Assembly: GCA_964469335.1 (NCBI GenBank)
Contig: CAYXYK010000001.1
Location: 14,501 to 78,500 of the forward strand
DNA from: an uncultured Candidatus Saccharibacteria bacterium
Lineage (GTDB): Bacteria > Patescibacteriota > Minisyncoccia > Phycocordibacterales > UBA6899
Direction: 5' to 3'
Length of the DNA: 64,000 nt
Numbering within the stretch: position 1 is the first letter of the stretch; each line of letters starts with the position of its first letter. The notes below the pieces were generated by a model. That model saw only the letters and a list, made by a program, of their open reading frames with translations, did no database searches and was not told the origin of the DNA. The translations under genes and the position numbers were made by a program. Positions 9,510-34,519 of the stretch are shown one piece after another.

Positions 9510-10976
9510 CTAGGGCAACCGATTGAAGAGTGGCTTCTCCGGCATTTGATGGATGCGGATCAGCCGAAGAATCTCTTCAGCGGTGCGCGGAATAAAAGGA
9601 AGTAGCAGGTTCGCGATCGAATGTAATCGTTCGACCATTTCTGTGATGAGGACTTTACCTTGTTCAGGATCAGTTTTCACTACTTTGAACGGTTCGGTCT
9701 CTTGAATGTACACATCGAGCTCTGCGACCGCGGACATGACATACCCGAGAGCACGTTTTTGGTCGAACGCGGCGATCGCGTCATCCACCTTTGTGTGCGG
9801 CATCGGCACCGGGGTATGGACCGGCTTATCAAGATGCGTAGTAGCCATACGCATGATTCGACTGGTGAGATTACCTATTCCATTCTGAAGATTCGCCGAG
9901 TAGCTCGTCCGTATCGAATCAAGGGTTAAGTCCCCGTCCTCGAACGATGGCATATCATGCAAAAGAGTGAAGCGGAGTACATCCTCGGGATACGGAGTCG
10001 CCTCCTTATAGAGCTCGATGACGTCGAATGGATTGATCACATTCCCGAGTGACTTCGACATCTTCTGTCCTCCGGAAGTAATGAATCCGTTGATGATGAT
10101 GTGTTTCGAATTCGGAAGTTTTGCCGACATCAGCATTGCTTGCCACATCGCCGACTGTTGGCGATTGTTATCCTTACCACAATACTGTATGACCGGCCAC
10201 CACGCATTGAATCTTCCCATATCATCCGGCCAACCAATCGCGGAGATATAGTTTACGAGTGCATCGAACCAGACGTACATCACATGTTCATCGTCACCTG
10301 GCACCGGAACCCCCCATGACATCTTTGATTTGAGCCGTGAAATTGAGAAATCTTCGAGACCACGCTCAACGAATGCTCGGACTTCGTTACCACGGAAATC
10401 AGGTATCACGAAATCAGGCTGCTCTTGATACAGCTCTAGGAGAGGTTTCTGGTAGCGCGACCAACGGAAGAAATAGTTTTCTTCTTCTCGAATCTCAAGT
10501 TCGCGATTTGGATGAAGTGGACACTTTCCATCTACAAGTTCCGAATCGGTCTTTTCAAGCTCACATCCGACGCAGTATTTGACTCGGTAGAGTTTCTTGT
10601 AGATATCCGACTCACCTCGTTCGTTGGTATTTGTGAGACACTTGTTCCAGAATTCTTGAGCGGCCATGACGTGATGATCATCTGTCGTGCGAACAAAGTT
10701 GTCGACGGAAAGCCCAAGTAACCCCTTTAGTTCACGGAACTTCTCTGCATATCGGTCCGTATAACTTTTCGGATCGATACCCTCTTTTTCTGCCGCCTCC
10801 GCGATCTTTGCTCCATGCTCGTCAGTGCCGGTATTGAAAAACACCTCACTTCCCTTCAATCGATGGTACCGGGCGAGCACATCTGCGCGAATGATCTCCA
10901 TCGCGAAGCCCACATGGGGATCGGCGTTGACATACGGTAGTGTCGTTGTGATGTATACATTGTTCTTCTCACTCAT
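9510..10976 (-). CDS. metG: methionine--tRNA ligase (short form)
   Basis: HIGH-type motif PHVGF, KMSKS, and Cys residues of a zinc knuckle. 488 aa. Confidence 0.95.
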   Translation of the reverse strand: MSEKNNVYITTTLPYVNADPHVGFAMEIIRADVLARYHRLKGSEVFFNTGTDEHGAKIAEAAEKEGIDPKSYTDRYAEKFRELKGLLGLSVDNFVRTTDDHHVMAAQEFWNKCLTNTNERGESDIYKKLYRVKYCVGCELEKTDSELVDGKCPLHPNRELEIREEENYFFRWSRYQKPLLELYQEQPDFVIPDFRGNEVRAFVERGLEDFSISRLKSKMSWGVPVPGDDEHVMYVWFDALVNYISAIGWPDDMGRFNAWWPVIQYCGKDNNRQQSAMWQAMLMSAKLPNSKHIIINGFITSGGQKMSKSLGNVINPFDVIELYKEATPYPEDVLRFTLLHDMPSFEDGDLTLDSIRTSYSANLQNGIGNLTSRIMRMATTHLDKPVHTPVPMPHTKVDDAIAAFDQKRALGYVMSAVAELDVYIQETEPFKVVKTDPEQGKVLITEMVERLHSIANLLLPFIPRTAEEILRLIRIHQMPEKPLFNRLP

Positions 10977-13657: not shown

Positions 13658-15070
13658 TTATTTCGACAAAAGCGACGAAAGGTCGCCAATCGCTACCCGT
13701 TTCTGCTCTCCTGAATCGCGATCACGGAGGGTTACGGTTTCCTTGTGCTCAACGTTCTCCCCTAGCGTATCAAAGTCGACCGTGACACAGTAGGGTGTGC
13801 CGATCTCATCCTGCCTACGATAGCGCTTGCCTATGTTGCCGTTATCGTCGAATATGACTCGTCCTCCGAGCTCTTTTTTGAGAATTGTGTAGACTTCACG
13901 AGCCTTTGCAACAAGCTCAGGTTTATTCTTCAGTAGCGGGAACACTGCGACCAAAACGGGTGCGACAGTAGCATTGAACTTAAGATATGTGCGTTTCTCT
14001 CCGCTCATTTCGTCTTCAGTGTAAGCCTCGGAGAGAACAGCAAGGATGCTGCGACCGAGCCCGAATGACGGCTCGATGACATGAGGAAGAAAATGTTCCT
14101 TCGTTTCTTCGTCAAAATATTCGAGATTGACCTTACTCCCCGCTTGATGACTCTTGAGATCGAAGTCACCTCGGTACGCCAGGCCATAGAGTTCTTTCCG
14201 CCCAAATGGAAAATCATACTCGAAATCAATGGTGCGTTTCGAGTAATGCGCACGATCGGCGTCCGCTACTTCAAGTTCGTGCACCTTGTCTTTCGAGAGT
14301 CCGATCGCAGCAGTGAAATTCCATACCTGCTTTCGCCAGTGCTCGAAGTATTCCTCCCACGTATCCGCCTTGATGAAATATTCGATCTCCATCTGCTCAA
14401 GCTCGCGAACACGGAAGATGAAGTCACGCGGAGCGATCTCATTTCGGAATGCCTTTCCTATCTGCCCAAGACCGAATGGGAGCTTTGGGTGGAATGAATC
14501 GATGACATTCTTATAATTCACGAACATACCTCCTGCCGTCTCTGGGCGAAGATAACTCACACTTGCGGCATCTTCCGTTGCACCGATCTGCGTCTTGAAC
14601 ATCATGTTGAATTGACGCACTTCTCCAAGCTCATTCTTATCTGGGCTTTTCACTCCATGCTTTTTGATCGCAGCGTCCATGTCCGAGAAGGACATTCCTT
14701 TCACGTCAACTCCAACTTCTTCAAGCAGGTGATCGGCACGATAACGCTTTTTCGTCTTGAGGTCTTCGACCAGGGGGTCGGAAAAACCGCCGACGTGACC
14801 TGATGCGACCCACACATTTGGGTTCATGAGTATCGCGGCGTCCATCCCGTACATATCCTCCCGGTCGTCGACGAACATCTTCCACCAAACATTCTCAATG
14901 TTCTTCTTGAGTGTGACCCCGAGTGGTCCGTAATCCCAAGTACCAGCAAGGCCGCCGTAGATCTCGGATCCCTGATAAATGAAGCCGCGGCGTTTTGCGA
15001 GCGAAATGATCGCTTCCATACGCTCATTCACGGCAGTTTTCTTTTCAGACATAATGCCCATCCTACACAA
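13658..15070 (-). CDS. glyQS: glycine--tRNA ligase, alpha2 homodimer type
   Basis: Class II aaRS motifs with GlyRS-specific collinearity (WDYGPLGV, FRNEI, anticodon-binding C-terminus). The true start is probably the MSEKK a few codons into the ORF. Confidence 0.92.
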   Translation of the reverse strand: MCRMGIMSEKKTAVNERMEAIISLAKRRGFIYQGSEIYGGLAGTWDYGPLGVTLKKNIENVWWKMFVDDREDMYGMDAAILMNPNVWVASGHVGGFSDPLVEDLKTKKRYRADHLLEEVGVDVKGMSFSDMDAAIKKHGVKSPDKNELGEVRQFNMMFKTQIGATEDAASVSYLRPETAGGMFVNYKNVIDSFHPKLPFGLGQIGKAFRNEIAPRDFIFRVRELEQMEIEYFIKADTWEEYFEHWRKQVWNFTAAIGLSKDKVHELEVADADRAHYSKRTIDFEYDFPFGRKELYGLAYRGDFDLKSHQAGSKVNLEYFDEETKEHFLPHVIEPSFGLGRSILAVLSEAYTEDEMSGEKRTYLKFNATVAPVLVAVFPLLKNKPELVAKAREVYTILKKELGGRVIFDDNGNIGKRYRRQDEIGTPYCVTVDFDTLGENVEHKETVTLRDRDSGEQKRVAIGDLSSLLSK

Positions 15071-17072: not shown

Positions 17073-17666
17073 TCAGAGTTGTGTCGCTCTCAGCGCGGAG
17101 TTGACCAATGTCAGTACACGAGGACGTTCGACTTCCACCAATTTGAGCACATCCCTTCTCCCCCACGCATCAGAGTGAAGTAGCGAGGAAAACTCATCTT
17201 TATTCTCCCAATATCCCAACTCCGACAGAAGTCTCACCACGAAAAGAAGCTCCGCCGACCGGAACTCACCGCCACTCGGCTCGTTGTGAAGAAAATCAAT
17301 GGCGGCGAGTATCTCATCGAACAGCCGCTCGTGCCGCTCCTCTCCTTGGATAAGCCTGCGGATGAGTCCAGCGTGCTGTGCAAAGATCAGCCGCTTCTCG
17401 CGGGAGCGCAAAAGCGAAGAATGCGATTCAACTGGGCGCGCAGAAATCAGTTTCCACCCGTGCTTGCCGTGTATGAGATCGATCTCCGCATGAGCGAAAG
17501 TCGTAAGCGCATAGCGTAACTTCGAACGCATCTCTCTGAGGCTCTTCGCGTGCGCAACTACGAGTCCAAGCTCTCGAGTATAGCATGAGAGCAACCGATC
17601 CCCCTCTCCGAAAGGACGGCTCTCCAAAATGAGTGCTTCGGTATGATAGATATGATACGCCACCAA
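17073..17666 (-). CDS. recO: DNA repair protein RecO (short form, no C-terminal Cys4 zinc finger)
   Basis: N-terminal OB fold (EALILESRPFGEGDRLLSCYTRELGLVVAHAKSLR) typical of RecO. Only 197 aa and lacks CxxC pairs. Confidence 0.65.
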   Translation of the reverse strand: MVAYHIYHTEALILESRPFGEGDRLLSCYTRELGLVVAHAKSLREMRSKLRYALTTFAHAEIDLIHGKHGWKLISARPVESHSSLLRSREKRLIFAQHAGLIRRLIQGEERHERLFDEILAAIDFLHNEPSGGEFRSAELLFVVRLLSELGYWENKDEFSSLLHSDAWGRRDVLKLVEVERPRVLTLVNSALRATQL

Positions 17667-17701: not shown

Positions 17702-20700
17702 TTAGGAAACCTTACTTACCGAAAGCATGTCTCCGACGGAGTAGCTCGCTGCACCAACTGCCGATAGGAGTTCGGACTCAAATTTTCTGGCGACTGCCTC
17801 ATGATCTTTGGTCACAGTAAGGGTGACACGGTCACTCGGCCTTAGATCCGCTTTTTTGCGCAGATCTTGCACTGTACGGATGAGATCACGGAGGTCTCCC
17901 TCCTCCTTGAGCTCGGGAGTGATGGTAGTATCGAGTTTTACTTCTTTCCCTTCACGGATCTCTTTTACGTTTACCTCGTCGGCAACTATCTCGGCAAGCT
18001 CCTTGGAAAGTTTCGGTGCTTCAAGGTAAGCAAGCGGCTGGCGGACCTTGATCCCGGCTTTTGCTCTAGCCTCAAGGGCGAGAGTGACAACCCTTCGAGT
18101 TTCCTCCATGTCAGAGAGGATGGAGCTCGCAGCAACACCGATGTCCGGCCAACTCTCGAGATGCACACTCTCTTTCTTCCCCTCGATCGGAAGTCTGAGA
18201 TAGAGATCTTCGGCGAGAAATGGCATTAGAGGGGCAATAAGGCGCGAGAACTGAAAGAGTACCCATCCTGTTGTCGTTCGAGCAGAAAGCGCATCCGCTT
18301 CATCTGCGCTCTTGAAACGGTCACGGGAGCGGCGTAGATACCATGTCGAGAGGTCATCGAGGAACGGCATGACTGGGCGTGCCGCCTTATCGAGCTCATG
18401 GGTGTCGAGGTGATGCGTCACCTCTGCGTGAGTCTCATACCAACGTGCAAGAATGTAACGGTCGAGGATATTCGATGACTTCGGCGCTTCTCGTGAAATC
18501 GTATGTCCTTCGCTATAGGTATCGAAGAAGGAACGGACATTATCGACACGCAGATTGATCTTCTTAAACACCTCATCAACTCCCATCATCGAAAACCGCA
18601 ATTCTTCCCCTCTGACGACTGGAGAATTGATCATATAGAAACGGAGTGCGTCCGCACCGAACTTCGCCGCAAGCTCAAGAGGGTCTGGGTAGTTCTTAAG
18701 TTTCTTGGACATCTTCTGTCCATCTTCAGCGAGTATGAGACCGGTGGTGATGACGCTTTTGAATGCGGAGCGGTCAAAGAGTGCGACAGAAAGGATAAGC
18801 ATGGTATAGAACCACCCACGGGTCTGATCGACCGCTTCGGCGATGAAGTCCGCCGGGAAATTCTTCACGAACATCTTTCCTTCCGGCGTACGCTCGTCGC
18901 CCATGTAGTGGAACTGCGCGAATGGCATCGAACCTGATTCGAACCAACAGTCGAACACATGTGGGATGCGCTCCATCTTGCCAAGTTCGCAGCTGCAGTG
19001 ATAGGAAACACGGTCGACGAACGGACGATGGAAATCGAGCTCATAGCTATCGTTGTGTGTGATCGGTGCGAAATCAAGCGGGCGAATCTCAGCGTTGTTA
19101 ATGTAGTCTTCTCCCTCGAGCTCTCGCATCGCGGATGCCTCTTCGCGGGTCGCACCCTTTGCGACCGCATTCATGAGCCATACTGAATACTCATGCGCGA
19201 CAATGAGCACTTTCTTACCTTTATGCTTCTGATCGATGTCGTAGAGAAATGCACCGATGCGTTTCTTCATCTCGGTAAGTGTCTCGCCTCCAGGAGTTGG
19301 TTTGTCAAATTTCTCGAGTGTTGAGGTAAAATACGCACGATAGGTCTCGATCGAACAGCCACTGAAATCCCCAGTGTTCACTTCTGCGATCCGCTCGTCG
19401 TAAACTATCTCTTTTTTCGGGATTCCGAATGCATCAGCAGCAAGCTCGGCCGTCTCCTTGGTCCGCAGCAATGGAGAGGAGATGATGATATCAAACTTTT
19501 CTTTGATCTTTGCGGTGGAATTCCTTACTTGCGTCTTCCCTTTCTCAGTAAGATGGAATTCATCGTCTTTCTTGTAGCTGAGGATGCCACGCACGTTGGT
19601 CTCTGCCTCTCCGTGCCGCATGACAAAATACGTATTCGTCCCGCGCGTGCGACCACGGAGTTCGTCGACCGATCCGAACGCTTCGACTTTTCCGCATTTA
19701 TTGCACTTCCACACCGGAAGCGGTGCTCCCCAGTAGCGAGTTCGCGAGATAGCCCAGTCGCGTGCACCTTCGAGCCATTTCCCGAAACGACCGCCCTTGA
19801 TATTCTCCGGGACCCAATTGATCTCATTGTTCTCTTCAATGAGTCGGGGCTTCAATTTGACTACATCGACGAACCATGACGAGGTTGCGTAGTTGAGAAG
19901 CGGCCAATCACAACGCCAGCAGTGCGGATAGGAGTGGACGATATTCTCCTTCGCAAAGAAGGTTCCGTGCTCCTGAAGATACTTGAGCACGAGGATATCG
20001 GTCGAAAGACGCTCTTTGTCGTCGTCACTCTTTGGCTTCACATAGAGTCCTGCAAAATCCTTCACTTCTGACTTCATGGTGCCATCCATCGATACATGCT
20101 GGATGAACGGAAGTTTGAGCTTCTTTGCGAGTTCCATGTCTACTTCACCGAATGCGGGTGCTTCATGCACGATACCGGTACCAGATTCGATGGTGACAAA
20201 ATCTGCAGGAACGACCTTCCAGCCGTTCTCGTGATTCTCTAATTTCTCGTCTGAAGCGTAGTAATCGAAGACTGGCTTATATACTTTACCGATGAGGTCT
20301 TTGGCGGGAACTTCAGTCACAGCATATGACTTTTCGTCGAGTGGAATGCCTGCCTTCTCAAACGTGTGCGCCATTCGCTCCTTCGCCATCACATATGTAT
20401 TGCCCTTGTGTTCCCCGTCTGCGAATTCCACTTTCACGTATGAGATATCAGGATTGACTGCAATCGCTACATTGCCGGGTAGCGTCCACGGCGTGGTGGT
20501 CCACGCGATGAGATAGGTCTTCGGCTCATCAACGAGTTCAAATTTCACATAGACCGAAATATCTTTCACATCTTTATATCCCTGCGCAACCTCTGATGCG
20601 GCAAGAGTGGTCTCGCAGCGCGGACAAATGTGCATCGACTTATAGCCCTCATAGATGAGCTTCCGGTCATAAAGATTCTTGAATGCCCACCAGATGCTCT

Positions 20701-21190
20701 CAGTATACGAGGCATCCATTGTTTTGTAGGCGTGCTCCATATCCACCCAGCGACCCATACGCGGGACTATCGCCCTCCACTCTTTGTCATAGGTCATCAC
20801 CGAGTCGCGGGCCTTCTGGTTGAACGCCTCGATCCCGTATTTCTCGATATCGGTCTTATGCTTGAGTCCTAGTTCTTTCTCAATCAAGTTCTCGATCGGA
20901 AGTCCGTGGCAATCCCATCCCCACTCGCGGCGGACATAGCGGCCACGCATGGTCTGATAGCGCGGGATGAGGTCCTTGATAGTGCCTTGGAGGAGGTGCC
21001 CATGGTGCGGGAGCCCGGTCGCGAACGGAGGACCGTCGTAGAACACGTACGGGTCTTTCCCCTCATTCGCAATGAGTGTCTTTTCAAAAATGTGATTCGC
21101 CTTCCATGACGCGAGAATGCGTTCTTCGCGCTCAGGGAATGTCTCTTTTTTCTCAGCTTTGGCCTCGTTTTCTTCCATGGTACTCGTCAT
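17702..21190 (-). CDS. ileS: isoleucine--tRNA ligase (type 2) carrying an embedded histidine-phosphatase domain
   Basis: HIGH motif PFATGLPHHGHLL, CP1 editing domain, WAISRTRYWGAPLP, KMSKS as QKMSKKL, and a C-terminal anticodon-binding region. The ORF-track N-terminus (MSSISTR…) looks non-native. Most likely start is MTSTMEENE at 21190. Confidence 0.92.
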   Translation of the reverse strand: MTSTMEENEAKAEKKETFPEREERILASWKANHIFEKTLIANEGKDPYVFYDGPPFATGLPHHGHLLQGTIKDLIPRYQTMRGRYVRREWGWDCHGLPIENLIEKELGLKHKTDIEKYGIEAFNQKARDSVMTYDKEWRAIVPRMGRWVDMEHAYKTMDASYTESIWWAFKNLYDRKLIYEGYKSMHICPRCETTLAASEVAQGYKDVKDISVYVKFELVDEPKTYLIAWTTTPWTLPGNVAIAVNPDISYVKVEFADGEHKGNTYVMAKERMAHTFEKAGIPLDEKSYAVTEVPAKDLIGKVYKPVFDYYASDEKLENHENGWKVVPADFVTIESGTGIVHEAPAFGEVDMELAKKLKLPFIQHVSMDGTMKSEVKDFAGLYVKPKSDDDKERLSTDILVLKYLQEHGTFFAKENIVHSYPHCWRCDWPLLNYATSSWFVDVVKLKPRLIEENNEINWVPENIKGGRFGKWLEGARDWAISRTRYWGAPLPVWKCNKCGKVEAFGSVDELRGRTRGTNTYFVMRHGEAETNVRGILSYKKDDEFHLTEKGKTQVRNSTAKIKEKFDIIISSPLLRTKETAELAADAFGIPKKEIVYDERIAEVNTGDFSGCSIETYRAYFTSTLEKFDKPTPGGETLTEMKKRIGAFLYDIDQKHKGKKVLIVAHEYSVWLMNAVAKGATREEASAMRELEGEDYINNAEIRPLDFAPITHNDSYELDFHRPFVDRVSYHCSCELGKMERIPHVFDCWFESGSMPFAQFHYMGDERTPEGKMFVKNFPADFIAEAVDQTRGWFYTMLILSVALFDRSAFKSVITTGLILAEDGQKMSKKLKNYPDPLELAAKFGADALRFYMINSPVVRGEELRFSMMGVDEVFKKINLRVDNVRSFFDTYSEGHTISREAPKSSNILDRYILARWYETHAEVTHHLDTHELDKAARPVMPFLDDLSTWYLRRSRDRFKSADEADALSARTTTGWVLFQFSRLIAPLMPFLAEDLYLRLPIEGKKESVHLESWPDIGVAASSILSDMEETRRVVTLALEARAKAGIKVRQPLAYLEAPKLSKELAEIVADEVNVKEIREGKEVKLDTTITPELKEEGDLRDLIRTVQDLRKKADLRPSDRVTLTVTKDHEAVARKFESELLSAVGAASYSVGDMLSVSKVS
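19050..19650 (-). other. histidine phosphatase (PGAM/SixA-like) domain inserted between the KCNKCGKV zinc-knuckle segment and the HRPFVD…CWFESG segment of IleRS
   Basis: RHG motif (YFVMRHGEAETN), second Arg (SSPLLRTKETAE) and distal His (VLIVAHEYS). About 200 aa absent from canonical IleRS at this loop. Confidence 0.7.
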
Positions 21191-21305
21191 ACTATCGGTT
21201 TTAGCGTAATGATGCAAAATGACATGAAAATCGCGCACCCCGAAAGGTGCGCGATGCTCTTGGATTTCTCCCTTGTTATTGAAACTGCCTACGGCAGGCG
21301 TGCCG

Positions 21306-21620
21306 TCAGTGCTGCTGACGCTTGCGGAAGACGAGCCTCCGATCTTCCGCCAGCTCGACGGTGGTCCCCTCGAGCTCGGGATGCGCGTCGAGATCGACGA
21401 CAATCTTGACGCCGTCCTGGTCGAGGATGATCAGGTCATCTTCCTTGTGGCACTTGCAGGGACGCCAGAGCGGGTGAGCACCATGAAGGGTACTCTCCGT
21501 GCACAGGCGAACCGTGCTCGGGGGAACACCCCCTTGGTGCTCGGTCAGCGCCCTCATCAGGAAGGCGAACGCTTCGGACGTGATCTCGACGGCCTTTTGG
21601 CCCAATTCTTGTAGCGGCAT
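21306..21620 (-). CDS. hypothetical small Cys/His-containing protein within a GC-rich segment (strand assignment uncertain)
   Basis: 104-aa ORF with high GC3. A fully overlapping plus-strand ORF (21273..21614) is equally long. No recognisable family. Confidence 0.25.
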   Translation of the reverse strand: MPLQELGQKAVEITSEAFAFLMRALTEHQGGVPPSTVRLCTESTLHGAHPLWRPCKCHKEDDLIILDQDGVKIVVDLDAHPELEGTTVELAEDRRLVFRKRQQH

Positions 21621-21733
21621 TTGGTATGCACTCCGTTTTCTGTAGGTTGATTGAAAAGAACTTGCCTACCCCTTTATTTTGAGGGGCAGATTTATTCTAT
21701 GCCTGATTCAGAAAAAGAAAAGGGGGGCTGCAA

Positions 21734-21997
21734 TTATTGCAGCAGCTTGGCGTACACACTGTCATTCCATGTCTTCACCCCCTCAATAGCGATGATATCC
21801 TCCTTGAGTTGATGCGCTTCGTTGTTGAGCTCTTTCATCCTGAGGTTATGTGCTTTTTCTTCGACATAGAGCTGATAGCCGTGATAACGATAGAAGAAAC
21901 CAACGATGAGCATGTTGGCAATGAGCGCCATCCCCATCAATATGGTGAGCCCATCGATTTTGATTATTTCCTTGCGTTGGTATTCGCTCATGTTCAT
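21734..21997 (-). CDS. FtsB/DivIC-like septum-formation initiator (TM + coiled coil)
   Basis: 87 aa: one TM helix (LTILMGMALIANMLIVGFFY) followed by a heptad-rich coiled coil. Start overlaps the stop of the upstream gene. Confidence 0.5.
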   Translation of the reverse strand: MNMSEYQRKEIIKIDGLTILMGMALIANMLIVGFFYRYHGYQLYVEEKAHNLRMKELNNEAHQLKEDIIAIEGVKTWNDSVYAKLLQ

Positions 21998-22263
21998 TTC
22001 GTGTTACTTCCTGGGGTTGTGGTTGATCTTGCGGCGACGTCAGCGCGGAAGGCGACAAGGCGTTCGATATCGCGTGATACCTCATGCTCAGATGCTGTTT
22101 GTTCTTTTCTTAGCTCAAGCATCCCGAGATAATGCCAAATGAATGACACCAGCGATACGATGAACATGGTGCCGAGCACGATGCTCCACACTCTCCCCAT
22201 TGGTGTCTCTGGCACCGATTCATCTGCTTGCCTATTGTTCGTTTCTGCTTCCATTTTGTACAT
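21994..22263 (-). CDS. FtsL-like small membrane coiled-coil protein
   Basis: 89 aa: TM helix (WSIVLGTMFIVSLVSFIWHYL) plus coiled coil. Start overlaps the argS stop by 1 nt. Confidence 0.45.
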   Translation of the reverse strand: MYKMEAETNNRQADESVPETPMGRVWSIVLGTMFIVSLVSFIWHYLGMLELRKEQTASEHEVSRDIERLVAFRADVAARSTTTPGSNTK

Positions 22264-23990
22264 TACATTCTATCGGGAGCAGGAATCGCAAGCAACCCAA
22301 GTCCACTCTTCATAATGTGAGATGTCACTTGTACAAGTGCGAGCTTGTACGGCTCATCGACAGCCCCGTCGAGAACCATGGTGCTCCCATAGAATGCATT
22401 GAACTCACGAGCAAGTTCTATGAGATACGTGGCGACATGATGTGATTCGCGCTCACGCATCGCGCGCTCAACGATCTCCGGATAACGAAGAATGTATCGA
22501 TGCAGCGGAATGATTTCACCTTCCGGAATCAGTTCGAGATTCGCTTTCTTTCCTTCCGCCTTCGCGATGAGTGAGCGGGTACGCGCATAGGTATACTGTA
22601 GGTATGGCCCTGAATCTCCCTCAAACGACAGAGACTGCTCGAAGTCAAAGATAATATCCTTCCCTGCCGATTGGCGTAGTATCGAGTATTTGATCGCGCC
22701 GATAGCGACCTGTTCTGCGATCGAATGTTTCTCTTCATTGCTGAGTTTATCGCTGGTAATCTTGGTGAATGCCTTTGTCTTTGTTTCTTCGATAAGTGAC
22801 TCAGCGGTGATCACGTCTCCCGTTCGAGATGACATCTTACCACTCGGCAACCTGAGCATGCCGTGGGAGTAATGCTCGGTCTTAGCAGCTAGTTCAGGGA
22901 ATACCTTCCCCATCGCATCGAGTAAGACTTTGAAATAATCGTTTACCTCATTGCCGGTGATGATGATCGAAACATCGTATGGATAGGTGTCGTATTTGAT
23001 CTTCGATAGTCCCAGTTCTTTCGCTTCATAGGTCGGGAGTCCCTCTTTGTTTATAAACACGCGGGTATGCAGCCCTTTCGTCTCGTCTCCTTTGTAAACA
23101 ATAGCTCCGTCGCTCGTTTCGAATATCGCAGGTGTATTTTTTTCTACGACTTCTTTTCCGAACACACCGGTATCCGACTCAAAGAAATAGAAGTCGAACG
23201 CTTTGCCGTCACCATGGTTCGTCCCTAGGCGCTTATAGACTGTCTCGAGGTACTCAAGACTCCATGAACGACCGATATCGTAACAACGATTTACCTCGCC
23301 ATCGGACCTGTCATATATTTTTTTATTGACCGCAACGATCTCTTGCTTTGCTGCTTCATCAGTCTTGAGCGCAGTAGCTCCGACAACATATGACTGTGCG
23401 AGAAATGCGATCTTTTCTGCATGTGACAACTCCCCTTCCGGCAGTCTTGCTTTGAGCATCACCCATACAGGGCAAGCGATCTGCATGCCGACATCCCCCT
23501 GGTAACAGGCGCGCATGGTTTCTGCGCCACTTGCTTCAATGAGACGTGAGACTGACTCCCCAACGGCATTGCTCATCAGGTGTCCGATATGGAATTCCTT
23601 GAACGGATTCGGGTCGGTGTATTCAACAATGACTTTTTTACCCCTTAGACTGTCGTTCTTGCCGAAGTCGTCACCCGAAGCGATCGCCTCCTTGAGCGCA
23701 TGCACAAAATATTGTCTCGAGAGTTTGAAATTGATGAAACCTGGACCTGCAATCTCGACGGTGAGGATATTCGGATCTTCCTTTGCGGCAATTCGTGCAA
23801 CCACTTCCTCAGCAAGTTCGCGCGGATTCTTGCCGATGCGTTTTGCTCCCACCATTGCCACATTGGTCGAAAAATCACCATGAGAGAGATCAGCAGGGCG
23901 CTCTACCGAAAAGAAAATATCCGGCGGAACCAGCCCGTCAATGCTCTTTTGGATGAGGTCTACGAGTCTGTCTTTCATCGGCTGAGTCAT
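22263..23990 (-). CDS. argS: arginine--tRNA ligase
   Basis: N-terminal Arg_tRNA_synt_N, HIGH-like FHIGHLMS and a C-terminal DALR anticodon-binding domain. Confidence 0.95.
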   Translation of the reverse strand: MTQPMKDRLVDLIQKSIDGLVPPDIFFSVERPADLSHGDFSTNVAMVGAKRIGKNPRELAEEVVARIAAKEDPNILTVEIAGPGFINFKLSRQYFVHALKEAIASGDDFGKNDSLRGKKVIVEYTDPNPFKEFHIGHLMSNAVGESVSRLIEASGAETMRACYQGDVGMQIACPVWVMLKARLPEGELSHAEKIAFLAQSYVVGATALKTDEAAKQEIVAVNKKIYDRSDGEVNRCYDIGRSWSLEYLETVYKRLGTNHGDGKAFDFYFFESDTGVFGKEVVEKNTPAIFETSDGAIVYKGDETKGLHTRVFINKEGLPTYEAKELGLSKIKYDTYPYDVSIIITGNEVNDYFKVLLDAMGKVFPELAAKTEHYSHGMLRLPSGKMSSRTGDVITAESLIEETKTKAFTKITSDKLSNEEKHSIAEQVAIGAIKYSILRQSAGKDIIFDFEQSLSFEGDSGPYLQYTYARTRSLIAKAEGKKANLELIPEGEIIPLHRYILRYPEIVERAMRERESHHVATYLIELAREFNAFYGSTMVLDGAVDEPYKLALVQVTSHIMKSGLGLLAIPAPDRM

Positions 23991-24050: not shown

Positions 24051-24587
24051 CTAGGACTTCCCCTTCCACAGTCCGAGCACGAGCATGATCATATCAAGCG
24101 CTTCGGTCATCTTGGTAAGGTCACCCCCGTTCACGACCAGATGATCGGTAACAACGATCGGCCCGCCTCGCTCCAAACGCAAGATCTGCATTGCATCACG
24201 AAAGAACTCCGAAAAGATGTTCCGTACCGGCAAATGGATGGTTATTGTATGGAGTCGCGACCCGTAGCGTCGTTTCAATACCTCGTAGTCAGCAGAATTC
24301 TCCAAGCCTTCGACGAGAATATTCTCATTCATATCGTTCGAGTCGATCATCCGAATGACCTCGTTGGCATAGTGATCCTCTCCATGCATCCTCCTCAATT
24401 CCTCGCGCACCATTCTTTCATTCGCATATCCCGCCGCGACGCCACGACGAAGCAGTTCATCCTGTATCACGTTTCCAAAACTGACTTTCGGGAGATGAAA
24501 GACCGCCATCAGATATCCGAGTGCTTCGACCTTTCCCGATCGAGGAACACCGAGTATCGCGATGACATTCTTCTTTTCCATGTTCAT
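24051..24587 (-). CDS. UPF0200-like P-loop kinase paralog with degenerate Walker A (probable pseudokinase)
   Basis: Collinear with the upstream paralog (HGEDHYANEVIRMID, VVTDHLVVNGGDL), but its P-loop reads GVPRSGKV instead of GMPGSGKT. Confidence 0.7.
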   Translation of the reverse strand: MNMEKKNVIAILGVPRSGKVEALGYLMAVFHLPKVSFGNVIQDELLRRGVAAGYANERMVREELRRMHGEDHYANEVIRMIDSNDMNENILVEGLENSADYEVLKRRYGSRLHTITIHLPVRNIFSEFFRDAMQILRLERGGPIVVTDHLVVNGGDLTKMTEALDMIMLVLGLWKGKS

Positions 24588-25156
24588 TACAGGCTTTTGG
24601 GGAGGTCAAGCTCCTTCATGATCGCATCAAGCCTCTCGGTCATCTCTGATAGCGTACCTTCATTCTGAACGAGGAAATCCGCGACTGCGATCGGTCCTCC
24701 TTGTTCAAGGCGAACGATCTGTGATGCGTCACGATGCTCTGCTTCTTCTTTCGTGAGCGGCCGGACCGGTCTGGTCGTCAGGCGATGATGACGGAGTGTC
24801 GGAGAAGCATAGATCGCGACGGTATGGAGCCTGTCGCCAAAGTGACGCTTGAGCACTTGGAATTCGGTCCAACTATAGAGGCTCTCGACGAGGATATTCT
24901 CGCCTTCCTCGCTTTGGTCGATCATCCTTATGATCTCATTCGCATAGTAGTCCTCGCCGTGGATCTCGCGGAGCTCTTCACGCACGCTACGCTCGTTCGC
25001 CGCGTTGATGGGAAGCCCTCGACGCTGCATCTCGTCGAAAGTGACCTTGCCGAAGTATACCTTCGGGAGATGATAGACCGCGATGAGATATTCGATGGCC
25101 TCGGTCTTCCCTGACCCGGGCATCCCCAAGATTGCGATGACATGTTTCTTTTCCAT
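24587..25156 (-). CDS. UPF0200-like (archaeal-type, dephospho-CoA-kinase-like) P-loop nucleotide kinase
   Basis: Walker A ILGMPGSGKT, VAIYASPTLRHHRL and ADFLVQNEGTLSEM, matching my recollection of the UPF0200 family signature. Confidence 0.7.
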   Translation of the reverse strand: MEKKHVIAILGMPGSGKTEAIEYLIAVYHLPKVYFGKVTFDEMQRRGLPINAANERSVREELREIHGEDYYANEIIRMIDQSEEGENILVESLYSWTEFQVLKRHFGDRLHTVAIYASPTLRHHRLTTRPVRPLTKEEAEHRDASQIVRLEQGGPIAVADFLVQNEGTLSEMTERLDAIMKELDLPKSL

Positions 25157-30752: not shown

Positions 30753-31046
30753 ATGAAGAGCTCAAAAGATATTCGTGAACTGGAGAAGCTTTCCGCTGAA
30801 CTTGCGCCCAAAAGCGGCTGCACAGTCTGTAGGCTGATCCTCATTGCGACGGTAATTTTATTCGTATCATCGGTATTACTCGCGCTATTTGCCCTCGGAA
30901 GTGCACGTTCGAACCTCGAACGAATGGAGCCAGAGCGGGTACTGACTCCAACACAATCCTCAGAGCGTATCCAGGTACTGCGTGAGTACATAGAAAGCCA
31001 ACGCGGTTCCACCACGCTTCTTATCGGTAAACCCCAAACAAAATGA
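30753..31046 (+). CDS. small single-TM membrane protein, hypothetical
   Basis: 97 aa, TM helix RLILIATVILFVSSVLLALFAL. Stop overlaps the start of the downstream giant gene (ATGA). Confidence 0.4.
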   Translation: MKSSKDIRELEKLSAELAPKSGCTVCRLILIATVILFVSSVLLALFALGSARSNLERMEPERVLTPTQSSERIQVLREYIESQRGSTTLLIGKPQTK

Positions 31047-34000
31047 AGCACACCACATTAGTGCGCGCATTCTTTGCCGTCATTCTCACTACGCTCTTTG
31101 GGTCACTCTTCTCTACTGCTTCTGCCGCAACCGTGTCGATCATCAATAACTGGCAAAACCCCGCGCCGTATTCTTTTTATAGCTACACGAGCCCCGTTCA
31201 TGTCGTCGGATCATATACCCTTCCCCCCGACTGGGTCGGCACTATATATGTCTGGCAGGACGGAGTACAGCTCCCACAAACGCTGACGGTCAGCAATCTC
31301 GGAGGAGTAACACCGAAAAATGCCCCATTCGACATCAATCTCGGGATCCAGCCAGCAGTACCTTCTCCTCATGAGATCAGTATTGAATTCTTTGGCGGAG
31401 CATCGTGTTTCATTCTTAATACTTGCCCCGGAACATCAAGCAACTGGACTGATGAATCGATCGTCCCGCGCACCTATACCGCATCGAACACACCGGATCC
31501 GGTGCTCGCAATTTCCTATGATGCGAACGGAACCATCCCGCTCCAAAGTCCTGCGTTCGATTTCGCCAACGTCCCAATGAACACGACCGACACCCGCACA
31601 CTCTATGTACGAAATGTCGGTGGTGGAACCGCGATTGGTGCTGCGTCTATCGCAGGTGGCTCCAATCCGTTCTATTGTGTCGGGACTTGCACCTACTCTA
31701 TCCTCGCCGGTGCCCCTGCGATACCGATACAGGTGCAGTATGCGCCCGGAAGTGCCGGGATGACTTCCTCCGGGGTACTCGCATTCGGCTGTACTTCCCC
31801 GAATTGTGCAGGGGTGAATGCAAATCTTACCGGAAGCAGTGTTGCATCCGCGGTTCCTCCGCAACTTGACCTCAGTGACAGCTATCTAAGTTATGGATAT
31901 GTGAACATCAACCAGTCAGTCGACCAAGATATCACCATCTATAATACCGGCGGCGGAGTGCTGTCCGGCTCGCTGACCTTCGGAGACCCGAGCTACTCGT
32001 GCATCCCAAGCTGTAACTACTCTATTCCCGCGGGAGGTTCATATACCCTCACTGTCAGATTCAACCCGACCACGGGTGGTGACCATGACACGAATGCCAC
32101 ATTCACAGGTGGTGCGACCCCTGAGACGATTGCTATCTACGGAAGCGGCAATGCTAAACCGATCATCGACATCAATTGTGTCGGGTGCGACGGCGTAGGG
32201 TCAGGTGGACAATACCACTGGGATCTTCCGAATCCGGTTGCGCCGGGACAGACTCTCTACCAGACGATCGAAGTCAGCAATGTCGGCGTCGGGGTATTGA
32301 GCGGCATTGTGACACCCACGCCGGGATCTTGGAACACGGCTGGTTGGCATTGTGTAAGTGTCACCCAAGGCGGCATTACAACGCCTTACACCGATGCAAC
32401 GCCGTGTGCTTATTCAAACCTCGTCAACGGCGGGCCACCCGCGATTGTCCAATTGTCTTTTGTCGCATCGGTTGCGAATGTTGGCCCACAGCATGACTAC
32501 ACATATTTCAGCAACACACCCAATCCGAGCGATGGACCTGACGACCTGGAACTTTCAGCTGCGGTGACTGTCGACCCATTACTGAATATCACAGGACTCG
32601 GGGGTGAACTTGTTTTCGTCGACACGCTCGTCAATGTTGCGACATCTGATCTCTACGGCAATGCAAGCGACGCAATTTTGCTTGAGAACGTCGGCACTAC
32701 ACCGCTCACGGTCGTGATCAATCTCCCGGTCGGGGCAGGTGTCTTCACCTGCGTCAATCCGCTTCAGTGCAACACACCGATCATCATCGCGGCAGGCGCT
32801 ACAGTTCCGGTCGCATTTTCCTTCAACCCGCCGACGCCATACTCGTACAACCAACCGTTCACCATCTGCGTCAGTGGAACCTGCGGCAATTACAGCATGC
32901 GAGGATTGGGGCAGAACCCTCAATTCGGCATTCAGTCGGTGATTCCGGGAGGAGAGAATATGGACCCGATGAAGATCTGCGCAGAGGAAAATAACACTTG
33001 CGCGTTCACCGGAACAAAGACCGTCTTTTTCGGCAATAACACCAAAAATGTTTCGAGGAGTGCAACCGGTGGGGTGTGGTGCGACATTGCTTCTTTTGGG
33101 AGTGACCCTGCCCCGGGTGTCAATAAATATTGCTGGTACGCGAACACGAACTCCGGGACTTGGACAAACAAGCCCTGGACGACAAGTAACCTGTTTGCGA
33201 TCTACAACAGTGGCATCGGTGGTACGATCTACTATAAGATCACAAGCCCGACTGATTTCAAATGCAGTACCTCGCGAAGTTGGTCCGGCTATTGCCAGGG
33301 ATATGTGTTCAACTATGACGAGCAGGATGTCAGCTACGGTGGTGATATCAAATATGCTCCCATCTACTTCAATCCGACTATTGCCGGACCGATCAGTCAA
33401 ACATTGACCATCCAATATCACTTTGTCGCATGGGATGGTTACAGCCCCCCAGATTGTAATTACTGCCACACAACGACTACGCCACTCACGGGAACTGGAA
33501 TCTCTGGCGCTCACCTATTTGCCATAACGACACCATTCCCCACCACCAATGTCGGCGCAAGTTCTACGGTGAATCTTACGGTATACAATGATGGAACAAC
33601 GGTAGATAATGGTGTCACTGTCAACTATGTGAGTGGGGAGTTCAGCTGCACTGCGAACTGCGGGCCATACAACCTCGCACCGGGAGGAAGTCAGATCGCG
33701 CAGGTCACCTTCAGCCCGACCAGCGCCGGCACAAAGAACGGAAGCTTCTTACTTACCTCAACGGATCCTGTCCCGGTCGGACCGGCAAGTGTCACTGTTC
33801 CGATGACAGGAGTGGGCAACGCGTCCCCTGTCGTCGGCATCCTCAATCCTGTCGGGGGCAGTCTCGACTATGGCGTAGTCAACCAAGGATCACAACGTGT
33901 CTCGGGGGATGGCACGCTTCCTGCGATCATCGTCACGAATACCGGGGCGGGACTTCTTACCGGGGACGCGACTCTGGTCGATGCGGTGCACTATGTCTGT

Positions 34001-34519
34001 GTCTCATGTCACTATGAGGCGCTTGCGAACGGACAGCAGCAGGAGATAAAGATTGCCTTCGTACCGAAAAGCGTCAGCCCTCCTGCCCTCAACAACACGG
34101 TGAATTTCTCGGGTGGCAATGCGCTGATCAATTTCCTGCTCTATGGACAAGGGGCACTTGGGGCATCATCGATAAACAGCCCCGATACGAATTTCGGCCG
34201 CGTAGTGATCCGTGCAGGAAACTTCAAGGAGCAAGTGGTCACCGTCTACAATCTTGGCAGCGTTGATGTCCCTGGCGGCGACATCTCACTTACTGGACCT
34301 TTCTCCTGCACACACCCGCCCACACCGTACAATGCCGTAACCAGTAAATGCAGCTACCCTGCTATCCCTGCAGGTGGTTCGGTACAATTCACCATTCGTT
34401 TCACACCAACTACGCCGGGAGCGGCGAGTGGAGTGCTCTCGCTTGGTGGATCATCGAATGCGCGGGTTCGACTATCGGGAACGGGTGTCGTACCGTCGGT
34501 AAAATTTAGAGAGAGGTAA
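31043..34519 (+). CDS. giant secreted cell-surface protein with at least 7 choice-of-anchor-D/ASH-like Ig repeats
   Basis: Signal peptide (…SLFSTASA/ATV), then repeated units of the form NxGxxxLxG…SCxYxIxAGxxxxIxVxFxPxxxG, e.g. IYNTGGGVLSGSLTFGDPSYSCIPSCNYSIPAGGSYTLTVRFNPTTGG. Confidence 0.75.
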   Translation: MKHTTLVRAFFAVILTTLFGSLFSTASAATVSIINNWQNPAPYSFYSYTSPVHVVGSYTLPPDWVGTIYVWQDGVQLPQTLTVSNLGGVTPKNAPFDINLGIQPAVPSPHEISIEFFGGASCFILNTCPGTSSNWTDESIVPRTYTASNTPDPVLAISYDANGTIPLQSPAFDFANVPMNTTDTRTLYVRNVGGGTAIGAASIAGGSNPFYCVGTCTYSILAGAPAIPIQVQYAPGSAGMTSSGVLAFGCTSPNCAGVNANLTGSSVASAVPPQLDLSDSYLSYGYVNINQSVDQDITIYNTGGGVLSGSLTFGDPSYSCIPSCNYSIPAGGSYTLTVRFNPTTGGDHDTNATFTGGATPETIAIYGSGNAKPIIDINCVGCDGVGSGGQYHWDLPNPVAPGQTLYQTIEVSNVGVGVLSGIVTPTPGSWNTAGWHCVSVTQGGITTPYTDATPCAYSNLVNGGPPAIVQLSFVASVANVGPQHDYTYFSNTPNPSDGPDDLELSAAVTVDPLLNITGLGGELVFVDTLVNVATSDLYGNASDAILLENVGTTPLTVVINLPVGAGVFTCVNPLQCNTPIIIAAGATVPVAFSFNPPTPYSYNQPFTICVSGTCGNYSMRGLGQNPQFGIQSVIPGGENMDPMKICAEENNTCAFTGTKTVFFGNNTKNVSRSATGGVWCDIASFGSDPAPGVNKYCWYANTNSGTWTNKPWTTSNLFAIYNSGIGGTIYYKITSPTDFKCSTSRSWSGYCQGYVFNYDEQDVSYGGDIKYAPIYFNPTIAGPISQTLTIQYHFVAWDGYSPPDCNYCHTTTTPLTGTGISGAHLFAITTPFPTTNVGASSTVNLTVYNDGTTVDNGVTVNYVSGEFSCTANCGPYNLAPGGSQIAQVTFSPTSAGTKNGSFLLTSTDPVPVGPASVTVPMTGVGNASPVVGILNPVGGSLDYGVVNQGSQRVSGDGTLPAIIVTNTGAGLLTGDATLVDAVHYVCVSCHYEALANGQQQEIKIAFVPKSVSPPALNNTVNFSGGNALINFLLYGQGALGASSINSPDTNFGRVVIRAGNFKEQVVTVYNLGSVDVPGGDISLTGPFSCTHPPTPYNAVTSKCSYPAIPAGGSVQFTIRFTPTTPGAASGVLSLGGSSNARVRLSGTGVVPSVKFRER

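Follow-up and report, generated by a model that had tools for sequence, protein, structure and literature searches.

A histidine-phosphatase domain inserted in the CP3 zinc knuckle of a Patescibacteria isoleucyl-tRNA synthetase, and its stand-alone counterpart beside ileS

In a 64-kb stretch of DNA from an uncultured Candidatus Saccharibacteria bacterium (contig CAYXYK010000001.1, positions 14,501 to 78,500; hereafter the window), the ileS gene encodes a type-2 isoleucyl-tRNA synthetase (IleRS) that carries a histidine-phosphatase domain in the CP3 zinc knuckle, between its cysteine pairs (C496/C499 and C732/C734), in a peripheral loop of the connective polypeptide (CP; the CP3 nomenclature and the zinc motif in CP3 of the Thermus thermophilus enzyme are described in PMC7191050). 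The insert is very probably a genuine, active phosphatase domain. Comparison of sequences indicates that the association of IleRS with a phosphatase is evolutionarily persistent in Patescibacteria and has been re-invented there, and we lean moderately towards a catalytically active phosphomonoesterase acting in partnership with IleRS, as part of the same chain in the window (in cis) and as a separate protein in other genomes (in trans).

As judged from its sequence, the ileS product is a complete type-2 IleRS whose HIGH, KMSKK and CP1 motifs are intact. A single open frame on the minus strand (17702..21403) holds the gene without interruption, and the start is likely the ATG (M) at 21190, which yields a protein of 1162 aa; relatives in the same 90% cluster (1150-1158 aa) start only a few residues from this codon. 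The NCBIfam ileS model TIGR00392 is matched at 841.4 bits, above its cut-off of 621.4, and the Pfam families follow one another as tRNA-synt_1 in two stretches around His_Phos_1, then Anticodon_1 and DUF5915. Type-2 and eukaryote-type enzymes are the best matches in the PDB, by sequence (1ILE, E=2.9e-209; 8C8U, E=1.5e-206; versus E=4.6e-83 for the type-1 enzyme 1FFY), and Foldseek gives the same picture (8C8V, an IleRS2, E=4e-82, versus E=1.6e-52 for the type-1 8C9E). Residues 1-515 comprise the first half of the Rossmann fold, the CP core, the CP1 editing domain (TTTPWTLPGN at aa 231-240 and GTGIVHEAPAFG at aa 337-348), CP2 and the start of CP3, and residues 718-1162 hold what remains of CP3 and of the Rossmann fold (its second half), then the KMSKS signature, the SC fold, the anticodon-binding domain and the C-terminal domains. 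The protein was rejected as an acquired mupirocin-resistance IleRS (MupA and MupB models, 682 and 657 bits against an NCBIfam exception cut-off of 1900) and as a GNAT-containing IleRS (NF040702, 300.9 bits against 1999, with no acetyltransferase Pfam match).

Alignment with 1ILE pairs query residues 16-515 with residues 8-480 and query residues 718-1047 with residues 488-821, and because the gap lies between these two blocks, the extra segment is aa 516-717, which replaces about 7 residues. The initial annotation of the window, made by reading the letters, had given residues 586-785, which were counted from an upstream TTG and correspond to 515-714 in our numbering. It had also placed the domain in the catalytic core; the insertion stands, but its site is the CP3 zinc-knuckle subdomain and not the adenylate-binding core. 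The presence of a histidine-phosphatase domain inside an IleRS is itself borne out, since a profile search assigns the insert to His_Phos_1 (PF00300) with E=6.1e-31 and 108 bits against a cut-off of 21.7, over profile positions 2-167 of 194. The RHG motif, the second arginine and the distal histidine that had been picked out by eye are all found at the checked coordinates, and we add E603 as the predicted proton donor; the domain has, moreover, a signature of its own, HE/HG-x-x-x-W after the second histidine together with E-K-F-x-K. In AlphaFold2 models, the insert alone reaches a mean pLDDT of 95.9 and a pTM of 0.92, and the full-length protein 90.2 and 0.82, with the insert region above 90. 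The insert adopts the alpha/beta fold of the branch-1 superfamily, closed by a C-terminal strand that precedes the linker to CP3 and that stand-alone relatives possess too. It is thus a compact, well-folded branch-1 histidine phosphatase of the PhoE/PspA/CobC type, with a small-molecule phosphomonoesterase fold.

The architecture is not a one-off but lineage-wide in the IleRS of Patescibacteria. All 120 best matches to the protein in a collection of 5.8 billion proteins, which are 54-100% identical to it and belong to Parcubacteria-type Patescibacteria, combine the PF00300 insert with the IleRS families and keep the RHG, Arg, Glu and His residues; the assemblies behind them come from NCBI, JGI, ENA and Logan, and the named taxa among them are Yonathbacteria, Lloydbacteria, Pacebacteria, Minisyncoccota and the Parcubacteria group. 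Throughout the alignment of these homologues with the query (121 sequences), the insert measures 200-209 aa, and R525, H526, G527, N532, T548, G551, S572, R576, E603, G607, R644 and H666 are invariant, a pattern that points to strict purifying selection on the catalytic residues. Identity to the query averages 53% in the insert, close to the 55% of the anticodon-binding and C-terminal part (the catalytic parts reach 71%), and the insert therefore evolves as a functional domain would. A frameshift or a chimera, which the initial annotation had named as a possible undoing of its claim, is excluded by the recurrence of the same architecture in the 120 best matches from independent assemblies; the open frame is uninterrupted and the GC content is even (0.495 in the insert, 0.519 in the gene, 0.501 in the window).

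The insert belongs to the superfamily but to none of its named subfamilies, since the equivalog scores for phosphoglycerate mutase (dPGM), PspA and CobC all lie under their cut-offs. Several NCBIfam histidine-phosphatase models match it, none near its equivalog cut-off: we rejected dPGM (NF038349, 79 bits against 225; NF002339, 52 against 316; GpmB NF002901, 45 against 261), the metal-independent phosphoserine phosphatase PspA (NF045917, 66.8 against 350) and the alpha-ribazole phosphatase CobC (TIGR03162, 66.3 against 162.9; NF011580, 47.6 against 250). Consequently, of the earlier proposal of a potentially active phosphatase or phosphomutase-like module, the first half holds as a prediction from the invariant residues, whereas the second fails with the dPGM cut-offs. 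The insert represents a new subfamily of branch-1 histidine phosphatases, the nearest relatives of which are PspA, PhoE and CobC. The nearest solved fold is that of the phosphoserine phosphatase PspA (4IJ5, 27% identity), which scored 22.6 in the fold comparison, followed by glucosyl-3-phosphoglycerate phosphatase (21.5), a riboflavin-pathway histidine-family phosphatase (9MMH, 21.4), PhoE (21.1) and CobC (20.4).

The same phosphatase also exists as a separate gene. A search with the insert only, run on 1.84 billion cluster representatives, gave 897 matches at E<=1e-10; the best 150 were mostly complete or fragmentary IleRS in which the domain has the same position, and the matches also include domain-only proteins of about 185-210 aa. 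Five of these stand-alone proteins (P0252, P0169, P0199, P0213 and P0261) gave informative look-ups, and in 5/5 the gene lies directly upstream of ileS on the same strand, separated from it by about 0-10 nt or overlapping its start codon, while the full-length ileS products beside them (972 and 984 aa) lack the insert. The gene order at such loci is argS, phosphatase, ileS, recO and a gene for a DUF11/CLIPPER-like protein, and the window matches it with argS, ileS, recO and a DUF11-like gene. A DUF11-like gene follows recO in distant loci (L002, L010) of the candidate phyla radiation (CPR) too, which makes argS-ileS-recO-DUF11-like a conserved block. No separate phosphatase gene was found anywhere in the window, and none of the three small open reading frames (ORFs) that occupy the place of the stand-alone gene between argS and ileS is phosphatase-like. 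Two of these ORFs (89 and 87 aa) each contain a hydrophobic segment, and the third (104 aa) lies in a GC-rich stretch (0.63 around 21300-21600).

The census of this arrangement covers 80 metagenome loci, found with a stand-alone-type motif from the narrower alignment A3 (A2, with its 19 stand-alone proteins, proved too divergent to give a motif). The stand-alone gene is followed directly by ileS at 45 loci, with a gap of at most 35 nt at 42 of them and two tandem copies at two; the domain is inside CP3 of IleRS at 10 loci, the stand-alone gene is in unrelated contexts at 16, and 9 loci are uninformative. The stand-alone gene, of about 190 aa, is therefore directly upstream of ileS in 45/61 informative loci. 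The two arrangements were never seen together in the loci examined: the insert is absent from all 30 IleRS ORFs that lie behind a stand-alone gene and reach past CP3, and a stand-alone gene is absent from the 10 insert loci and from the window. The tandem phosphatase genes before ileS (L034, 1780-2947; L075, 4504-5661) are the operon counterpart of the multi-copy inserts described below. A scan of contigs with a single insert sequence recovered one locus, L001, at 70% identity.

Exchange between the neighboring gene and the CP3 insert happened at least twice, because the CP3 inserts from the census (L054-type) are closer to the ileS-adjacent stand-alone proteins (55-68% identity) than to the window-type inserts (38-46%). 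We relied on best-hit identities between classes since a neighbor-joining tree of about 150 domain copies was star-like, with stand-alone and inserted copies interleaved, and gave no direction of evolution. As a separate observation, many insert-less IleRS encoded after a stand-alone gene (L002, 2709-5663; L014-L092) have GVHH, GIHH or GLHH in place of HxGH, as do several insert-bearing IleRS. The window enzyme keeps the canonical form. The swap resembles the altered signature motif tied to mupirocin hyper-resistance in IleRS2, and a 'hyper-resistant HIGH motif mutant' is named in PDB titles among the IleRS structure matches.

CP3 is not the only site at which IleRS hosts this domain. The IleRS P0149 has four His_Phos copies, of which one lies in CP2 and the other three at CP3 or beyond it, and P0150, P0198, P0236 and P0255 have two each. 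Further insertions lie in the loop after the FAQFHY segment (query ~759-777) and at the junction of the SC fold with the anticodon-binding domain (query ~902-907), so that four or more different loops are used: CP2, CP3, the second half of the Rossmann fold and the SC-fold/anticodon-binding junction. Every full-length copy in the multi-copy enzymes keeps RHG, R, E and H. The two-copy P0236 (1419 aa) is present on six contigs of up to 1.06 Mb, and most of the 120 best homologues in a search seeded with it have His_Phos_1; the named ones are IleRS of Gracilibacteria, Peregrinibacteria and Peribacteria. Enzymes of these three groups (P0287, P0288, P0348, P0364, P0370 and others) are mosaics of 1200-1860 aa with 1-3 His_Phos domains, and they also carry GNAT, P-loop kinase (AAA_33/AAA_18/Zeta-type), DUF559/REase-like or abhydrolase domains; one of the inserts, within the editing region, resembles an IS200 Y1 transposase. 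We considered the two kinase-like genes upstream of argS in the window as a source of the inserted kinases and rejected them, as no meaningful similarity was found; the first of the two has a degenerate Walker A motif (GVPRSGKVE versus GMPGSGKTE).

One relative of P0236 is particularly informative. P0347 (JGI) is 58% identical to P0236 over its first 560 residues and has no His_Phos; instead, the loop of the first His_Phos copy in P0236 is occupied by tandem HAD_2 domains (residues 561-765 and 767-966, 46% identical to each other) with DxDG motifs. That a non-homologous phosphatase displaces His_Phos suggests that phosphatase activity is the selected property. The HAD_2 family consists of capped phosphatases that act on small molecules.

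We propose that the coupling of the phosphatase to IleRS is functional and probably goes beyond mere co-expression. Selection would keep a phosphatase activity stoichiometric with IleRS and physically close to it. H526 would attack the phosphomonoester or terminal phosphoryl group of a small molecule that arises, or competes, at the isoleucine-activation or editing site; candidates could be inorganic pyrophosphate (PPi) or a nucleotide product, a phosphorylated inhibitor or a near-cognate metabolite. E603 would protonate the leaving group, and water would then free inorganic phosphate, the release of which would keep isoleucylation running, IleRS itself remaining a normal synthetase. On balance, we expect the substrate to be a small molecule and not tRNA or protein, and we rank the small-molecule options first because the nearest folds are those of metabolite phosphatases and because the substitute in P0347 is of the HAD_2 type. 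The initial annotation had offered aminoacyl-adenylate, tRNA 3'-end phosphate states or a signalling nucleotide as possible substrates; the comparative data lean instead towards a phosphomonoester of small size.

Several points weigh against this proposal. Sixteen of the 61 informative stand-alone genes are away from ileS, and genes for a serpin, NYN-domain proteins, YbaB, DUF5320 and a helicase are among their neighbors (e.g., L025, L027, L031, L047 and L053); they form a tight subgroup, about 90% identical to the nearest member, and show that the partnership is not universal for the subfamily. The four insertion sites are on different loops, which argues against a precise channelling geometry and fits simple tethering or co-expression. 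Local clearance of PPi or AMP is a weak rationale given diffusion. The restriction to IleRS has no explanation under a functional partnership, and no phosphatase domain was found in the MetRS, ArgRS or class II aminoacyl-tRNA synthetase (aaRS) of the window. Finally, the net charge of the domain ranges from -7 to +15 between lineages, and the pI swings with it, so that charge is uninformative on substrate or RNA binding.

Part of this evidence would suit a housekeeping enzyme that merely travels with IleRS, namely a metabolic phosphatase acting on a sugar phosphate, phosphoserine or a cofactor, with no chemical link to aminoacylation, whose linkage to ileS would serve only co-expression or stability in tiny, regulator-poor cells. 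The closest relatives are indeed metabolic phosphatases, a quarter of the stand-alone genes are away from ileS, and the insertions are at several unrelated surface loops; in addition, the DUF559, IS200-type and abhydrolase inserts of CPR IleRS suggest that the enzyme may simply tolerate insertions. We nonetheless regard this explanation as unlikely. The domain was repeatedly inserted internally and in frame instead of being fused end to end, up to four copies occur per IleRS, insert and upstream gene occur in strict complementarity, and a non-homologous phosphatase substitutes at the same loop; if closeness to IleRS were not selected for, all this would be difficult to explain.

A bolder form of the partnership, which we put forward as a speculation with modest odds, would make the IleRS of Patescibacteria a hub for target-embedded protection by small-molecule-modifying enzymes, acting in cis or translationally coupled. 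By analogy, the co-occurring GNATs suggest that the inserts may all serve protection. The histidine phosphatase everywhere, the HAD substitute, and the GNATs and P-loop kinases of Gracilibacteria and Peregrinibacteria would then act at the step of isoleucine activation, where they would destroy or modify either a natural inhibitor with a phosphoryl or amino group or a near-cognate metabolite that is toxic.

Healing of the tRNA acceptor end appears rather improbable. According to this explanation, the domain would remove a 2'- or 3'-phosphate, an opened 2',3'-cyclic phosphate or a pyrophosphate from A76 while IleRS holds tRNA-Ile, and thereby restore a chargeable 3' end. It draws on the tethering of the domain to the connective-polypeptide region around the acceptor-end entrance, on the Gracilibacteria and Peregrinibacteria IleRS that pair His_Phos with AAA_33/AAA_18/Zeta kinases, an arrangement recalling polynucleotide kinase-phosphatase enzymes, and on toxSAS toxins, which pyrophosphorylate the CCA ends of tRNAs. 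Against it, the nearest folds are metabolite phosphatases, the substitute in P0347 is of the HAD_2 type, whose C1 cap normally excludes macromolecules, and the window-type domain is acidic; we know of no precedent for a His_Phos_1 enzyme acting on RNA ends, and a restriction to tRNA-Ile would be unexplained. We consider it equally hard to credit, indeed improbable, that the domain is a protein phosphatase acting on IleRS or another translation factor (e.g., to reverse a kinase toxin), or a phosphometabolite sensor that regulates IleRS allosterically; in the fold comparison, the protein phosphatases SixA, Sts and PGAM5 scored 14-15. An artefact or a selfish element (a chimeric assembly, a pseudogene with a frameshift, or an insert of intein or mobile type that is removed or non-functional) has next to no chance: the architecture is unusual and some CPR IleRS have nuclease-like or transposase-like inserts, but there is one open frame without a compositional break, the architecture recurs in 120/120 homologues under apparent purifying selection, and only His_Phos_1, with no Hint/splicing or homing-endonuclease domain, lies between the tRNA-synt_1 halves.

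The features of the window are collected in the table. Of its four clustered aaRS genes, only ileS encodes an extra domain. No tRNA genes and no Rfam families were found in the whole 64 kb. Farther away, a gene on the plus strand encodes presumably a large surface protein with repeated HYDIN/ASH/Cep192-type Ig-like domains.

Table. Features of the ileS region and of other genes in the window (window coordinates; aa, residues of the 1162-aa IleRS unless stated otherwise)
Feature	Coordinates	Strand	Remarks
ileS, 1162 aa + stop, type-2 IleRS with insert	17702..21190	-	ORF, TIGR00392, PDB matches
IleRS N-terminal part, aa 1-515	19646..21190	-	pairs with 1ILE residues 8-480
HIGH signature HHGH, aa 62-65	20996..21007	-	canonical form
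CP1 editing domain, ~aa 205-425	19916..20578	-	motifs TTTPWTLPGN and GTGIVHEAPAFG
CP3 zinc knuckle, first Cys pair CNKC (C496/C499)	19694..19705	-	invariant among homologues
Inserted histidine-phosphatase domain and linkers, aa 516-717, 202 aa	19040..19645	-	
His_Phos_1 (PF00300) match, aa 522-686	19133..19627	-	E=6.1e-31
RHG motif: R525, nucleophile H526, G527	19610..19618	-	invariant
R576, second phosphate-binding Arg	19463..19465	-	invariant
E603, predicted proton donor	19382..19384	-	invariant
H666, second catalytic His	19193..19195	-	invariant
CP3 zinc knuckle, second Cys pair CSC (C732/C734)	18989..18997	-	invariant among homologues
IleRS C-terminal part, aa 718-1162	17705..19039	-	1ILE alignment; Pfam Anticodon_1 and DUF5915
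KMSKS signature KMSKK, aa 826-830	18701..18715	-	intact
recO	17073..17666	-	downstream neighbor, synteny anchor
DUF11/CLIPPER-like protein, 651 aa	15101..17056	-	N-terminal membrane anchor; downstream of recO
Three small ORFs (89, 87 and 104 aa)	21191..22262	-	between argS and ileS
argS (ArgRS)	22263..23990	-	upstream neighbor; in relatives, stand-alone phosphatase between argS and ileS
Two adjacent paralogous AAA_17/AAA_18 P-loop kinase-like genes	24051..24587 and 24587..25156	-	upstream of argS
MetRS-like gene	9510..10976		within 15 kb with the other three aaRS genes
Class II HGTP-type aaRS gene	13658..15070		within 15 kb with the other three aaRS genes
1158-aa protein, repeated HYDIN/ASH/Cep192-type Ig-like domains	31043..34519	+	

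The aaRSs are among the best-studied enzymes, and bacterial ones are thought to bear only editing and RNA-binding add-ons. We know of no step in the known aminoacylation cycle that needs a phosphomonoesterase, and we consider the finding of high interest because it concerns an accessory activity outside this cycle and because the comparative signal is unusually strong. Throughout an extensive radiation of bacteria, IleRS is linked with phosphoryl hydrolysis by three mutually substituting routes, namely an overlapping upstream gene, insertion in at least four loops and in up to four copies, and a non-homologous HAD substitute; substitution of this sort is a classic sign that a functional link is real. 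The identity of the substrate could reveal a new step, such as clearance of a product or inhibitor, proofreading of a substrate or repair of the tRNA end; it could also expose an unsuspected selective force acting on translation in symbiotic bacteria of ultra-small size. If IleRS were a protective hub, it would represent a novel type of aaRS-embedded module for resistance or quality control, and its existence would imply an unrecognised class of IleRS-directed natural products or metabolites in CPR habitats. A predicted bifunctional enzyme is also concealed behind the name 'class I tRNA ligase family protein' in thousands of database entries.

The architecture is already present in databases, as seen from the automatic names that JGI gives to some relatives ('isoleucyl-tRNA synthetase/phosphohistidine phosphatase SixA/...'). 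In agreement with the initial annotation, which knew of no described IleRS of this kind, we found no paper in PMC or bioRxiv that describes or explains it, most subscription journals being outside this coverage. An aaRS with an accessory domain is thus of a known kind, and the phosphatase in IleRS is new, being undescribed in the literature found. No PADLOC anti-phage defence model matched the insert or two stand-alone relatives.

The window enzyme is collinear with T. thermophilus IleRS (1ILE) and Priestia megaterium IleRS2 (8C8V) from HIGH through the DUF5915-type C-terminal domains and resembles type-2 structures in fold (TM 0.71-0.80 at the Foldseek E value of 4e-82), but at the CP3 site, where the window enzyme has 202 aa, no solved IleRS of the searched PDB copy has a domain of any kind. 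Its insert differs from PspA (4IJ5), PhoE (1H2E), CobC (6E4B) and glucosyl-3-phosphoglycerate phosphatase (6S2Q), to which it is 21-28% identical, by its own signature and by being embedded in, or operon-coupled to, IleRS. The ileS_w_GNAT family (NF040702) provides a curated precedent for an IleRS bearing an extra enzyme domain; many IleRS of Gracilibacteria and Peregrinibacteria combine GNAT with His_Phos. The window IleRS lacks the GNAT, and the association with a phosphatase, for which we could find no curated model, extends more widely. A possible functional analogue, by analogy only, is given by immunity enzymes that shield an aaRS by modifying a small molecule: the acetyltransferase TfxH confers immunity to tiarins, which are aaRS-targeting Trojan-horse antibiotics, and has been likened to the protective acetylation of processed microcin C, GNATs being a prevalent immunity mechanism against aaRS-directed Trojan-horse warheads (bioRxiv 10.64898/2025.12.02.691738). 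In contrast to TfxH, the chemistry predicted in the window is dephosphorylation and not acetylation, it resides in the same polypeptide as the synthetase, and no phosphorylated IleRS inhibitor is known. The bifunctional RNase H/acid phosphatase PRK07238 (NF005567), the phosphatase half of which the insert matches at 76 bits (cut-off 326), likewise joins a CobC-like His_Phos_1 domain to a nucleic-acid enzyme; PRK07238 is an end-to-end fusion with RNase H, whereas the phosphatase of the window is an internal insertion in an aaRS.

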